Shown here piece by piece: positions 47,483 through 57,038 of a stretch of 64,000 bases of DNA. Below the pieces are notes generated by a model that had not been told where the DNA came from, searched no databases, and worked only from the letters and a program-made list of their open reading frames with translations. The DNA lies in the NCBI GenBank assembly GCA_963710425.1, contig CAVQAR010000009.1, positions 134,539-198,538 of the forward strand, read 5' to 3'. Every line of letters begins with the position of its first letter. The stretch's first letter is position 1. The DNA comes from an uncultured delta proteobacterium (GTDB lineage Bacteria; Desulfobacterota; Binatia; Binatales; Binataceae). Made by a program: the position numbers and the translations under genes.

Positions 47483-48350
47483 CTACTTCACGCTCGCCAA
47501 TCTGTCGAGTGCTGCCGCGACCGCTTGGGTTCCGTCGAGGTCATGGCCGAGCGCTGATGCCGAGTTGAACATCGAGGCCATCAGCGAGAGTCCCGGGAGC
47601 GCGAGTCCTGATTGATGGGCCGTCTCAGTCACCAGACGCAGGTCCTTGCGAATCAGCTTGATGAAAAACCCGGGCCGATAATCGCCGGCGATAATTTTCG
47701 GACCGAGGTTCGACAACTGCCACGACCCCGCCGCACCGGCGCCAATCGCCTCGAGCACCAGCGACGCGTCGAGACCGCCGGCTTTGGCGAACTGAATCGC
47801 TTCTGCCGCCGCCTCGAGGTTGAGTGCGACCGCTATTTGATTCGCAAGCTTGGTCATCTGGCCCGGCGCCCGACGCGCCCATGTATGTGATCCTTTTTCC
47901 GAGCAGATCGAACAGTGGGCGCGCCCGCTCGAACGCGGCCGCATCTCCGCCGACCATAATCGCGAGCGTGCCGTCGCGAGCGCCCACGTCGCCACCCGAC
48001 ACCGGCGCGTCGAGGTAATCGACGCCGGCCAGTTTGAACCTCATCGCGATTGCGCGCTCTGCCGCCGGCGAAACAGTGCTCATATCGACGACGAGTTGCC
48101 CAGCCTTCAGCGCAGGCTCGATCTTCGCGACGGTCGCCTCAACGTCGGGAGTGTCGGGCACCATGATAAACACGACCTCAGCGCCTGCGACGCATGCCGC
48201 CGCGTCGGCGGTTACGATCGCGCCGTCAGCAGCCAGCGCGCGAGCTTTCTCAGGCGAGCGATTGAAGACGCGCACGCGATGGTGTCCGCCGAGCAGCCGC
48301 CGCGCCATCGGCGCGCCCATGATTCCAGTTCCGATCCATGCGATTTCCAT
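47483..48350 (-). CDS. NAD(P)-dependent 3-hydroxyisobutyrate dehydrogenase-family oxidoreductase, frame disrupted
   Basis: MEIAWIGTGIMGAPMARRL (Rossmann motif), DAPVSGG, MVGGD, ITYMGASGAG. The adjacent frame then reads QMTKLANQIAVALNLEAAAEA...RKDL (ORF 47483..47995). Indel near 47858..47870. Confidence 0.85.
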
Positions 48351-48380
48351 GTGGTGTTGCTCCTGAGAGAAACGCGCAAA

Positions 48381-48507
48381 CGCGCGAGATCCTTCGCTGC
48401 CCTCAGGATGACACAAGAAGACTGCTACAGGGCAAGGATCCTTTTTCTTAACACTGGGTGCAGGGGTCACCCCTGCCGGGAAGCGTGAAACCCGCGCAGG
48501 GTTTCAC
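48381..48507 (+). repeat. family C unit followed by a family B double hairpin
   Basis: CGCGCGAGATCCTTCGCTGCCCTCAGGATGACACAAG (48381..48417) and CTGGGTGCAGGGGTCACCCCTGCCGGGAAGCGTGAAACCCGCGCAGGGTTTCAC (48455..48507). Confidence 0.85.
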
Positions 48508-48985: not shown

Positions 48986-49920
48986 CTATCTTTGGCCAGT
49001 CCAATCGGCAGGCGCGACTGAGCGCCATCGCGCCCGAATCGCCTCATATTCCGCCGGTGGCAACGGTCCCGCGTTGGCGTGCTCGATATTCTGCGCGATG
49101 CGCTCGACTCGGGTCGTGCCGACAATCGCAGTGGTCACGCCTGCGGTGCCGAGCGTGAATCGAAGCGCGACCGCGACCGCGTCCTCGACCCCGCGATGTA
49201 AAAAATCGTAGTTGAGTTTCTGAAGTCGATCCCAATACGGCCGCGTGTACCAATCGCCGGGCGGCTGCTTGCCGTGACGCCACGCAGCGTTGGCGATCGG
49301 CCGCTTCACGATCACGCCCATCCCGCGCGCTGACCGCCTTTGGCAGTACGCGATCGATCGCCTCCTGGTCCGCGATACTCACCGAGATCTGCAGAGTATC
49401 GAACACGCCGCTTTCGACCGCGTACACGGCGTCGTCGGAATCGATACTGCATCCGATGAAGCGCGCCTGTCCGCGTTCGCGCGCTTTTTGGAGAACCTCG
49501 ATCACGCGGCCGTTTTTGAGCGTCGCGAGCGGCGGGCTGTGAAACTGCATCACGTCGATATGGTCGGTGCGCAGGTTCTTGAGACTGCGCTCGATACTCC
49601 GCGCGAGCATCGCGGGCTCCCAGTCCGGCGTCGCGTAACCAGCCCGCGCGTTCGGACGCAGAGCCAAGCGGCGCATGCCCGCACTTCGTCATCAGAACAA
49701 ACTCTGCGCGGCGATGGGCAATCGCCTTTCCAATCAGCGTCTCGCCGTCGGCATAGCACTCCGCCGTATCGATCACGTTGATCCCGGCGTCGAGCGCGGT
49801 ATTCAGAATTTTATCGACCGTCTTCTGCGCGACCGCCTGGTAACCAACCTCAGACCCGCCAAATCCAAGCGTACTGACTCGAAGCCCGGTCTTTCCCAAC
49901 GCGCGATATTCGATTGCCAT
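48986..49920 (-). CDS. aldo/keto reductase, broken into three frames
   Basis: N-terminus MAIEYRALGKTGLRVSTLGFGG...INVIDTAECY...FVLMTKCGH (ORF 49312..49920). Middle SIERSLKNLRTDHIDVMQFH...ARFIGCS (ORF 49044..49676). C-terminus GVIVKRPIANAAW...TTAIVGTTRVERIAQNI (ORF 48986..49321). Confidence 0.8.
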
Positions 49921-50801: not shown

Positions 50802-51990
50802 TCAGCTGCGGCTCTCGACCAACTTGCGCAAACGCTCGGCGCCCTCCCTCGCAACCTGCTCTTGCTCCGGATTGCTCCCAGAGCCATCGAGATCGAGCAG
50901 GTCATAGTAGAGCTTGCCGCGCAGCTTGCCGACTTCATTGACGAACGTCGTGCCGTAGTCGCGCTCCGGATCGCCCATCGCGAACGCCTGCCGCGTTATC
51001 GTCCAGCTCTCGGGCCGCAGCCGTCGCGCTTCCTTGAAATACGGAACCGCGTCTGGAGCGTGACCTGTCTCGCACAGATACTCGGCGAGCCTGAAGTAGG
51101 CTGCGGCCTGCGCATGATCGCGCGTCGGGAGTTTAAGCTTGCGCTTGACCTCGTCAGGCTTCATGACGAAGCGGCTGTTGGCGCCGTTCTTCGCCCAGTC
51201 GCGCAGAGCGTCGAGATATCGCGCCGAATCGATTCCGGTAATCGCGCGGAAAGTGTCGATCGCGTACGCGACTTCGTTGGGCCGCACGATCATTCCAGCT
51301 TCGTCGATCCAGACCGCGGTCGGCACATTGACCATGTTGTAGAGTTCGGCGACGACGTGCCGCGTGTCGATCAACGAAGGATGCGCGGGCGCGCCGGCCT
51401 TGATGAACGGACCGGCCGCCGCAGCGCCGCCGGTGTCGAACGCGACCGTGACGATCGTGAAGTTGGAGGTCCTTGAGTTCGTTGTACAGCGCCTGCCACC
51501 CGGGCAGGTCAAGGGAGCATCCTCACCACGAGGCCCACGCCAGTAGAAAAACTTTCTGGCCGCGATAGTCGGACAAGCGATGCAGCTTGCCGTCGAGGTC
51601 GGGCAGCTCGAAATCGGGAGCTTCGAGCGTGCGCAGCGCGTTGCCGCGCTCGGCTGCCTCCGCGCCGAAATACCAGACGCGATGCTTTAAGTCGCCGGCC
51701 CACGGCTTGCCCAACTGGTCGGCGAGCGCGCCGAAGTCGAGGAAGGTCGCGTTGTCCCGCTTCGCGGTGAATTCGCTCTCGCGTCCCGGCGGAATCGGCA
51801 CGCACAAATCGCCACGGCAGATTCCCTCCGGCTTCAACTCCCATCCTGCGAGCCGCTTCAACTCCGCCGCATCGAGCCACAGCGCATTCGAGTCGGCGAT
51901 CGCGCGCTCGAACTGCAACGGCTGATCGTCGTGAATAACGGTAGCGGCGGCCGGCTTCGATTCAGTTGTCATCGTATCGTCCTCCCCCAT
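50802..51990 (-). CDS. TlpA/ResA-like thioredoxin-fold redoxin with in-frame UGA at the active site (candidate selenoprotein) plus one frame disruption
   Basis: ORF 51523..51990 ends KVFLLAWASW-TGA. The same frame continues GCSLDLPGWQALYNELKDL. After a slip near 51462..51470, ORF 50802..51512 continues NFTIVTVAFDTGG...NVPTAVWIDEAGMIV, with a TPR-like C-terminal region. Confidence 0.7.
51471..51514 (-). promoter_or_regulatory. SECIS-like stem-loop downstream of the UGA at 51523..51525
   Basis: mRNA CCUGCC-CGGGU-GGCAGG (51492..51508) begins 14 nt after the UGA, so the apical loop starts 20 nt after it. A possible lower stem is CCUUGA / UCAAGG. Confidence 0.4.
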
Positions 51991-55245: not shown

Positions 55246-56106
55246 TCAAGCGGCGAGTTTGCCCTTCGCCAGATCAGCAAACGTGATTAGTTCGATTCCA
55301 TTTCGAGCGACCGCGTCGCGCACGCGCGGACTGGTCAGAATCTCGACTTCGAGCTGTGCCGCGGCAGACGGCGGAACTCCGCCAATATCAGCCGCCGGAT
55401 GGAAATACAGCTCCGTGGTGCCGTCGCGAATTCGATCGATCACGCCGACGACGTAATCCTCGCTCAGATGACCGCTCTGATGAAGCCCGAACAGCGCGTC
55501 GGTCGAAGTGAGGCCGCGCTCGGTCATCATGCGGCGCGTTCGCCGCGACAGCGTCCGGAAGATGGCGGACTCGACCAGCTTGCGCGTCGCATTGTCACGG
55601 CGCAGCCGGATCGTCGTCATCACGCGCTCGCGCGGAAGCCGAATGCACGGCACTTTGTATTCGACCGCGAGGTTAACCAGAATATCGGCGAACAGCGGAT
55701 GGACGTGGAAGTTCAGATGGCCGTCGATATGATTGAGATAGCCGACCAGCTCGAGATGGCGCTCGACTTGCGCGCGCAACTCATCGGTCATTGCGGCGCG
55801 CAGCGAGCGGTCGAAGAAATAGCGCATCCCGGCGCCGACCGGACTGTCCATGAACTCGCCCGACGCGTTCAGCGCAGTGCCGAGCCGCGAAGAATCGAGG
55901 ATGCTGCGTCCCTGGCAGACGACCGCATGCAGCCCGACGTCGAGCCCGGAATTGTCGCGCGCAAGTTCGGCGGCTGGCAGCGCGGCCGGCTCCGCAACCA
56001 TCAAGCTCGCACTGCGCAAAATCCCATCGCGATGCGCGCGCACGATGCCTGCGTTGACTTCCGGCGACAAGCCGAAGTCGTCGGCGTTAACGATGAGACG
56101 CTTCAA
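55246..56106 (-). CDS. hpnK: YdjC-family protein, HpnK-like (hopanoid-biosynthesis associated)
   Basis: MKRLIVNADDFGLSPEVNAGIVRAHRDGILRSASLMV, VGLHAVV, IDGHLNFHVHP. Divergent from an HpnG-like gene. Confidence 0.7.
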   Translation of the reverse strand: MKRLIVNADDFGLSPEVNAGIVRAHRDGILRSASLMVAEPAALPAAELARDNSGLDVGLHAVVCQGRSILDSSRLGTALNASGEFMDSPVGAGMRYFFDRSLRAAMTDELRAQVERHLELVGYLNHIDGHLNFHVHPLFADILVNLAVEYKVPCIRLPRERVMTTIRLRRDNATRKLVESAIFRTLSRRTRRMMTERGLTSTDALFGLHQSGHLSEDYVVGVIDRIRDGTTELYFHPAADIGGVPPSAAAQLEVEILTSPRVRDAVARNGIELITFADLAKGKLAA

Positions 56107-56176
56107 ACGGCGACACCGCGTTTGTCAAAAAGCACGGGGTCGATTTTGCTAGTATCGCACCGCTCACTCAAGCGTC

Positions 56177-56207
56177 ATCAGTGGGGCGGGCCGCCGTGCC
56201 CGCCAAT
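56177..56207. repeat. half copy of repeat family D
   Basis: CAGTGGGGCGGGCCGCCGTGCCCGCC matches the arm AGTGGCGCGGGCCGCCGTGCCCGCGG of 17660..17689 and 19990..20021. Confidence 0.7.
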
Positions 56208-56234
56208 TGGCGATGCCAAAATGAGGCTCGAAGA

Positions 56235-57038
56235 TTGATCCTTCTCTTCTACGCCTTCGCCCGTGAAATCGCGCCGTTCAAACGCCGGCTGCAGCATCGC
56301 GCTCCGCTCGCGCTCGACGGCTTGGATGGCTTCCGCGTGGAAGTCGGCGGCAGGGAATTCGCCGCGGTCGCCCATGGCATCGGGCACAAACGCGCGAGCG
56401 AAACCGCGCGCCGCGCATTCGATCTGATACCCGATGCAGAGTTGGTAATCGGGACCGGCGTCGTCGGCGCGCTTTCGGCCGGATTGAAGCCGGGCGACCT
56501 CGTTCTCTCCGACCGGACTATCATGATTCACGGCGACGGACAGGTTGGCGAGCAAGTCACCGCAATCAGCGTCGCGCACCTGCGCGCGATCGGGCGCTCG
56601 CTCGCGAACGCGGGCATCGCATATTCGACCGGCGCGATTTTGACCTCGCATCGCGTGCTCGCAACCGGCGCCGAGAAACGACGCGCCAAGGAAAGCACCG
56701 GCGCGATCGCCGTGGACATGGAAACCGCCGCGATAGCTGCAGAAGCCGCCGCGCGCGGACTCCCGTTCGTCGCGATTCGCGCCGTGCTCGACGAAGTTGA
56801 CGACGAAATTTTCGGCGCCGAGATGGCCGATGAGAACGGCAACGTCAAACCGTTCGCCGCTACGTCATTTTTGTTGCGGAATCCGGCGACGATGCTCAAT
56901 CTGCCGCGGATGATTCGCAATCTCTCGCGCGCGACGGCCTCGATCGCGGACGCACTGATCGCGATTGCCCACGAAGGACAGGATCCTGAAGCTACGAAGC
57001 GCGGTCGCGGCCCGGCGGAGCGAAAGCGCCCGCGCTGA
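56235..57038 (+). CDS. hpnG: PNP/UDP-family nucleosidase, HpnG-like (hopanoid-associated phosphorylase); start uncertain
   Basis: ILLFYAFAREIAPF..., GIGHKRASETARRA, VIGTGVVGALSAGLKPGDLVL, GAIAVDMETAAIA. Start placed at the in-frame TTG because the region upstream is repeat D. Confidence 0.65.
   Translation: MILLFYAFAREIAPFKRRLQHRAPLALDGLDGFRVEVGGREFAAVAHGIGHKRASETARRAFDLIPDAELVIGTGVVGALSAGLKPGDLVLSDRTIMIHGDGQVGEQVTAISVAHLRAIGRSLANAGIAYSTGAILTSHRVLATGAEKRRAKESTGAIAVDMETAAIAAEAAARGLPFVAIRAVLDEVDDEIFGAEMADENGNVKPFAATSFLLRNPATMLNLPRMIRNLSRATASIADALIAIAHEGQDPEATKRGRGPAERKRPR

Follow-up and report, generated by a model that had tools for sequence, protein, structure and literature searches.

A probable selenoprotein gene of the ResA-like WAxxUGC family, interrupted by one extra base, in an uncultured Binataceae bacterium

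Does a TGA codon inside the redox motif of a thioredoxin-like gene end the protein, or does it specify selenocysteine (Sec)? The question is raised by a stretch of 64,000 nucleotides from an uncultured delta proteobacterium of the Binataceae (GenBank assembly GCA_963710425.1, contig CAVQAR010000009.1, positions 134,539 to 198,538), which is referred to below as the window. On its minus strand, the open reading frame (ORF) 51523..51990 terminates with RGQKVFLLAWASW (KVFLLAWASW) at TGA 51525..51523, as had been described in an original prediction made from the sequence of the window. The motif W-A-S-W-TGA-G-C spans positions 51537..51517 of the minus strand, and the codon of the partner Cys is located at 51519..51517. 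Past the TGA, the original frame reads GCSLDLPGWQALYNELKDL and then turns into Arg-rich nonsense without similarity to homologues. The +1 frame (ORF 50802..51512) reads NFTIVTVAFDTGG...NMVNVPTAVWIDEAGMIVRPNEVAY...VPTAVWIDEAGMIV, with a stop at 50802. The frame of the window thus holds for 19 codons after the TGA and resumes once a single frameshift is repaired. We conclude with high confidence that the two ORFs form a single selenoprotein gene, which belongs to the known ResA-like WAxxUGC family.

In-frame TGA and the SECIS-type hairpin

The query for profile searches was the 395-residue product obtained by writing the TGA as Cys and deleting one C from CTC[C]AAC. It matches the NCBIfam equivalog NF041054.1 ('ResA-like WAxxUGC motif-containing protein', WAxxUGC_long) with 343.1 bits (curated cutoff 300; E = 2e-102), in one stretch that covers positions 7-351 of the 354 positions of the profile. 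This single match joins the two ORFs into one gene, as originally proposed, and the family name mentioned in the original prediction exists. In Pfam, AhpC-TSA and Redoxin match the middle of the protein, and weak tetratricopeptide repeat (TPR) signals are present at the C-terminus. The match to AhpC-TSA (PF00578) starts at residue 117 and passes the gathering score (58.1 bits against 26).

The family is also named UGC-containing TlpA/peroxiredoxin (Prx)-like. Table 2 of Zhang & Gladyshev (2008) lists 'Prx-like (UGC-containing)', pfam00578, with the motif UGC (PMC2398784). The counts for this family in the Global Ocean Sampling data are 46 Sec sequences and 855 Cys homologues, and it is more abundant in non-marine samples (PMC2398784). 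The gene is therefore a member of a selenoprotein family that has been curated and published before. A full-text literature search returned no paper with the term 'WAxxUGC'; the family was published under other names. We came across no paper that characterises the UGC family biochemically or names its substrate.

The codon in question was compared among relatives at the protein and DNA levels. A protein search gave 991 homologues. The best 120 of them, which were inspected, are either full-length proteins of 350-430 residues or fragments of about 218 residues that start just after the motif (MPGWQ... or LDLPGWQ...); fragments of this kind arise when gene callers halt at the TGA. Full-length homologues with the motif contain WASW-C-GC in 73 of 76 cases and WASW-W-GC in three. 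At the DNA level, we analysed the 80 best loci from a genome collection and the 80 best loci from a metagenome collection, the latter queried with an alignment of Cys forms. All 80 genome-collection loci have TGA at this codon; they originate from Acidobacteriota, from 'uncultured delta proteobacterium' and Binataceae metagenome-assembled genomes (MAGs), from Methylomirabilota and from Tepidiformaceae. Chloroflexota and Binatia-like MAGs are also among the TGA-bearing sources. Despite the Cys-form query, the metagenome loci contain TGA in 76 of 80 cases and TGC in four. Altogether, TGA stands at this codon in about 155 distinct related loci, which belong to several phyla, whereas a Cys codon, TGC or TGT, was confirmed in the DNA of others (L091, L106, L109, L110, L166-170 and L175-178). 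Among the soil loci sampled, the TGA form is far more frequent than the Cys form, a finding that the present analysis contributes. Acidobacteriota and Binatia-like bacteria of soil very commonly have a member of the family.

In every TGA locus of a relative, the reading frame continues after the TGA for 207-262 codons, and only that of the window is shorter (122 codons, out-of-frame). The frames of about 160 Sec-form loci were checked, and all are intact except that of the window. Two features of selenoprotein genes are thus present, namely Cys aligned at the UGA column and conserved coding continuation in relatives downstream of the UGA. The UGA was originally placed at the first active-site Cys, and this placement holds: homologues carry TGC or TGT there, and the first Cys of the CxxC motif of ResA and Etrx aligns with it when a one-residue gap is allowed. 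The read-through protein aligns with homologues that have Cys or TGA at this column and do not end there, and the redoxin-like continuation after the TGA, GCSLDLPGWQALYNELKDL, follows the homologues until the frame break.

The mRNA downstream of the UGA can form a hairpin that the original prediction had likened to a bacterial selenocysteine insertion sequence (SECIS). It consists of CCUGCC (51508..51503), the loop CGGGU (51502..51498) and GGCAGG (51497..51492), and overlaps the codons for D-L-P-G-W-Q-A. The stem has 6 bp, and the 5-nt loop has G at position 2 followed by another G. The distance from the UGA to the loop is 20 nt, and the minimum free energy (MFE) of the 17-nt hairpin is -9.3 kcal/mol. 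The bacterial SECIS (bSECIS) model calls for a stem of 4-16 bp, a loop of 3-9 nt with G in the first two loop positions, a UGA-to-loop distance of 16-37 nt and an MFE <= -7.5 kcal/mol (PMC13188914). The hairpin satisfies every one of these constraints.

A comparative set of 150 distinct Sec-form sequences supports the helix. RNAalifold predicts the same six pairs from these sequences independently. The outermost pair joins the third position of the Asp codon to the first position of the codon that follows Gln; 80 sequences have C-G here and 55 have U-A. In the adjoining pair, formed by position 1 of the Leu codon and position 3 of the Gln codon, 99 sequences have C-G and 43 have U-A, and C-A or U-G combinations number only 3. 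Of the hairpin cells, 95.1% are paired, as against at most 60.8% in slid registers, and the covariation score was reached by none of 500 shuffles. The conservation of the TGA and the pairing and covariation of the hairpin far exceed chance. The geometry originally described for 51492..51508 is therefore borne out by the constraints of the model, by RNAalifold and by the covariation of two pairs, and this comparative, covariation-backed demonstration of the SECIS helix is what the present analysis adds for the family.

The peptide encoded by the hairpin varies in a manner that fits the helix. At the Pro of LPGWQ, the only substitutions seen in Sec forms are Ser (DLSGWQ in L090, L092, L093 and L099) and Leu (DLLGWQ in L021), both of which result from C-to-U changes and leave a G.U pair in the helix. 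At this Pro, the evolution of the protein appears to be constrained by the RNA structure. Among the Cys forms, five of nine break one or both variable pairs, including three of the seven that retain LPGWQ, which is consistent with a constraint specific to TGA forms, although the sample is small. The original prediction had also offered an optional lower stem (51514..51509 with 51476..51471). It is present in the MFE fold of the window but absent from the RNAalifold structure of the 150 relatives, the alignment of which ends at 51472 and covers only part of the 3' arm of the lower stem. We treat the lower stem, which is unsupported outside the closest clade, as clade-specific or fortuitous.

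Some homologues have neither Sec nor Cys at the position. Trp occupies it in P0002 (loci L171 and L172), P0007 and P0086, and TGG was confirmed in the DNA of L171 and L172. The TGG homologues, found in two independent samples, keep an intact SECIS hairpin, UUGCC-AGGCU-GGCAA. They look like the outcome of a recent change from TGA to TGG that would remove the redox nucleophile. Two Sec-form paralogues can share one genome, as in L016 (3141 and 4435) and in L007 and L057 (the same MAG, CAVUUH01). The paralogues of L016 are arranged in tandem at a distance of about 1.3 kb, and only one of the two has a signal peptide. A scan of the window for other in-frame TGA candidates gave 75 hits, all of which are consistent with GC-rich noise and were rejected.

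Protein fold and redox centre

The central part of the protein (residues 111-238) matches the sequences of ResA, TlpA, DsbE and Etrx in the PDB with E-values of 1e-10 to 1e-15. HMMER alignments place a one-residue gap in the motif, with W-C-G-.-C facing W-C-x-x-C (WCSIC or WCPPC). Therefore, the redox centre is probably U-x-C, with Sec at the position of the nucleophilic first Cys. The fold was examined in an AlphaFold2 model of the Cys-form homologue P0001, which is 50-52% identical to the window protein. The model (predicted local distance difference test score, pLDDT, 90; predicted template modelling score, pTM, 0.87) contains three domains: a beta-rich N-terminal domain, a thioredoxin fold and a helical C-terminal domain. 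A Foldseek search of the PDB with this model matched the central domain only, with template modelling scores (TM-scores) of about 0.75-0.8 when normalised to the target. The query-normalised TM-score is at most 0.33, and no PDB entry spans the whole architecture; neither the beta-rich domain at the N-terminus nor the helical one at the C-terminus has a match among PDB structures.

The N-V-P (cis-Pro) loop is invariant, in agreement with the thioredoxin fold of cd02966. The C-x-x-C motif of cd02966 is absent, and the protein has U-G-C instead (C-G-C in the Cys forms). In 61 homologues, both the residues of U/C-G-C and the two Cys of an N-terminal CX4C are invariant; the latter are C58 and C63 in the 395-residue numbering, or C52 and C57 when counted from ATG 51972 (codons 51819..51817 and 51804..51802). 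Peroxiredoxins carry the motif P-x-x-x-T/S-x-x-C(U) (as cited in PMC13188914). In the window protein, the residues before U are L-L-A-W-A-S-W, with Leu at -7 and Ala at -3. Judged by its sequence, the protein is not a canonical peroxiredoxin, because it lacks the P-x-x-x-T-x-x-C context.

The window protein has no hydrophobic N-terminal stretch (maximum 12-residue hydropathy 0.59), and the heuristic does not class it as extracytoplasmic. Many acidobacterial members have signal peptides of the secretory (Sec-pathway) or twin-arginine (Tat) type according to a hydropathy and motif heuristic, and Tat starts (M..RRDFLK...) occur among the Sec-form genes L098, L103, L105, L107, L108 and L147. Members with a signal peptide are predicted exported selenoproteins.

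Based on these observations, a mechanism can be proposed. When the ribosome arrives at the UGA (51525..51523), the hairpin 14 nt downstream (51508..51492) would recruit SelB with Sec-tRNA(Sec) through its G-containing apical loop, and selenocysteine would be inserted in place of termination. We infer that decoding depends on SelB. The selenocysteine would stand in for the nucleophilic first Cys of the thioredoxin-fold active site, and the U-G-C centre would cycle between the selenol/thiol and selenenylsulfide states, so that the protein would probably function as an oxidoreductase of the thiol-disulfide type. The N-terminal CX4C may relay electrons, and the helical C-terminal domain may bind a partner.

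Frame break and alternative explanations

The gene extends over 51972..50802 of the minus strand, and its parts are listed in Table 1 together with two split genes nearby. Its true start is likely ATG 51972, which is favoured because GGAGG, a Shine-Dalgarno sequence, precedes it by a few bases and because the N-termini of close relatives read MTTESKP or MTDQSKP. The first part of the coding sequence encodes the beta-rich N-terminal domain with the CX4C and the first strand of the thioredoxin fold. The part after the frame break completes the ResA-like thioredoxin fold, to which the invariant N-V-P loop belongs, and encodes the helical TPR-like C-terminal domain. The upstream neighbour is an M1 aminopeptidase that ends 1 base before the ORF, and the downstream neighbour encodes a DUF72 protein. 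Near the M1 aminopeptidase there are hopanoid-biosynthesis-associated genes (55246..57038), hpnK (252 bits, above the cutoff) and an hpnG-like phosphorylase (below the cutoff), which fit a Binatia-like soil bacterium.

Table 1. Parts of the selenoprotein candidate gene and split genes in its vicinity (positions in the window)
Feature	Position	Strand	Basis or remark
Coding sequence, part 1: ATG start to the Trp codon preceding Sec	51526..51972	minus	
In-frame TGA in the W-A-S-W-U-G-C motif	51523..51525	minus	proposed Sec codon
Hairpin CCUGCC-CGGGU-GGCAGG	51492..51508	minus	MFE, RNAalifold, covariation
Post-Sec coding sequence in the original frame, GCSLDLPGWQALYNELKDL	51467..51522	minus	translation and homologue alignment
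CC dinucleotide, one base surplus, breaks the frame	51465..51466	minus	relatives without the extra base
Remaining coding sequence in the +1 frame, NFTIVTVAFDTGG... to stop TGA 50804..50802	50802..51464	minus	
Aldo/keto reductase gene, split into three frames	48990..49920	minus	private 1-base insertions at 49642 and 49331
3-Hydroxyisobutyrate-dehydrogenase-like (HIBADH-like) gene, split	47483..48470	minus	domains in different frames

The slip that the original prediction had suspected near 51462..51470 was traced to a single extra C at 51465/51466, where the window reads GAC CTC C AAC and the relatives read GAC CTC AAC. The insertion is private to the window, as it is absent from L001 (94% amino-acid identity) and from L002-3 and L006-L011 (86-88% nucleotide identity). 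In 5.9 kb aligned with L006-L009 and L011, the extra C is the only private indel within any coding region, and the gene is otherwise free of stops and indels. Two neighbouring genes carry private single-base frame breaks as well. The aldo/keto reductase gene is an intact ORF of 314 codons in L006, L007 and L011. In the HIBADH-like gene, NAD_binding_2 lies in ORF 47625..48470 and NAD_binding_11 in another frame (47483..47995); therefore, there is a frame break near 47865. Altogether, at least four frame breaks (at about 47865, 49331, 49642 and 51465/6) occur within 3.7 kb (47.8-51.5 kb), and GatA/GatB, the M1 peptidase and DUF72 are intact elsewhere in the window. A further frameshift suspected at 20.7-23.6 kb was rejected, as gatA and gatB are intact there.

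The extra C is probably a local error of sequencing, assembly or polishing, and less likely a very recent inactivating mutation. An error is favoured because the insertion is private, the neighbours are similarly damaged, and the ratio of nonsynonymous to synonymous substitution rates (dN/dS) stays at the low level of intact relatives. Past the break, the window compared with its relatives gives a dN/dS of 0.05-0.07, and intact relatives compared with one another give 0.02-0.10. There is no sign of relaxed selection, because the two agree. The frame break concerns this copy and not the identity of the family, and the comparison of relatives indicates that the slip is not a feature of the gene or family. 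This diagnosis of the slip as a private 1-base insertion in an error-prone stretch of the assembly is also added here.

If the extra C and the frame breaks of the neighbours are instead true mutations, the window contains a genuine selenoprotein gene that has recently become a pseudogene. The only available sequence does have a broken frame, and the breaks cluster in 47.8-51.5 kb while the other genes named above are intact, so errors would have to be non-uniform. Against this reading, selection past the break is as strong as in intact relatives, the gene has no other lesion, and the damage consists only of single-base insertions in three unrelated adjacent genes, which resembles a defect of consensus building or polishing confined to this region. 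The closest relatives are long-read MAG assemblies (contig_N naming) that also contain private 1-nt indels. We consider a pseudogene rather unlikely. Programmed +1 frameshifting was rejected, as the insertion is absent from all relatives. The site CUC-C-AAC has none of the known +1 slippery features, and none of the about 160 relatives needs a frameshift. There is next to no chance that the extra C is real and that the gene is expressed through a +1 frameshift 19 codons after Sec insertion, with two recodings in one mRNA.

Several observations weigh against a selenoprotein at this locus. As assembled, the frame is broken, and most of the thioredoxin fold would be missing from the product. A non-exhaustive literature search found no report of experimentally shown selenium in any member of the family. 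The full hairpin is retained in four of the nine Cys forms, its stem core is partly dictated by the conserved peptide LPGWQ, and the folding energy of the 76-nt region is ordinary in comparison with shuffles (z = -0.18). No selA, selB, selD or tRNA-Sec was found in the 64-kb window or the flanks of the fetched loci: tblastn with E. coli SelA, SelB and SelD gave no match in the window or in any fetched locus, and ARAGORN and Rfam (at the gathering threshold) identified only a tRNA-Arg in the whole window and no tRNA-Sec. A search for the machinery over 64 kb is uninformative on Sec decoding in either direction.

TGA is the usual stop codon in the window, gene callers split the locus into products of 149 and about 218 residues in many databases, and conserved residues encode the stem core. 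On these grounds the TGA could be taken for a normal stop or for a nonsense mutation, in a locus made up of two separate genes or of a Cys-type redoxin in decay, with a hairpin that is a by-product of encoding the conserved LPGWQ. Such a stop would, however, have to hit the catalytic residue exactly in about 155 independent homologues across phyla, always followed by more than 200 conserved in-frame codons that complete the same thioredoxin fold. Covariation at third and first codon positions preserves the helix, and the curated selenoprotein model NF041054 matches end to end. An ordinary stop is effectively refuted and seems extremely unlikely to us. A reassigned genetic code, in which UGA is read as Trp or Gly rather than Sec, has in its favour the Trp at the column in the three database homologues, with TGG confirmed in two loci. 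However, the usual alternative in homologues is Cys and not Trp or Gly, the position is that of the redox nucleophile, and a SECIS-type hairpin accompanies the TGA. TGA is also the commonest ordinary stop of the window, where 11 of 18 long ORFs end with it; both the M1 peptidase upstream and the present gene do so. Therefore, a code with TGA as a general sense codon is ruled out, and we give a Trp or Gly reading practically no credence.

The practical value of a selenoprotein gene at this locus lies in annotation. Gene callers split the gene into 'hypothetical' or 'peroxiredoxin' fragments, and the split products of 149 and about 218 residues are abundant in metagenome protein sets. The locus should be annotated as one selenoprotein, with the frame break flagged as a probable assembly error. 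The U-G-C centre, the invariant N-terminal CX4C and the existence of members predicted to be exported by the Tat or Sec pathway make the family a reasonable target for biochemistry.

Comparison with known systems

The gene shares with NF041054 the W-A-x-x-U-G-C motif with a TGA-encoded U, a full-length colinear match above the cutoff, Cys homologues and a predominance in non-marine (soil) samples. Nothing of substance differs from the family. The copy in the window has a 1-base insertion 19 codons past the Sec codon, so that the unbroken frame apart from the Sec codon that a member of NF041054 should have is absent from it (extra C at 51465/6), and the clade of the window lacks a signal peptide, unlike many acidobacterial members.

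The hairpin resembles the SECIS elements of the E. coli fdhF/fdnG type and the bSECIS consensus in that it is located within the coding sequence just past the UGA and lies within the limits of the model. It has no sequence similarity to the fdhF and fdnG elements, and Rfam, searched at the gathering threshold over the window and at permissive E-values around the gene, gave no match to a SECIS family. Its short helix also serves to encode the conserved peptide D-L-P-G-W-Q.

The protein is similar to ResA, TlpA, CcmG (DsbE) and Etrx (cd02966; PDB 1st9, 1jfu, 3gl3 and 4hqs) in its thioredoxin fold with the conserved N-V-P loop. It differs from them in its active site, U/C-G-C, which is one residue shorter than CxxC and in which Sec would replace the first Cys. 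In addition to the fold shared with the ResA/TlpA family, it has two further domains, a beta-rich one of about 110 residues at the N-terminus, which carries the invariant CX4C, and a helical one of about 130 residues at the C-terminus, and, unlike members of that family, the window protein has neither a membrane anchor nor a signal peptide.

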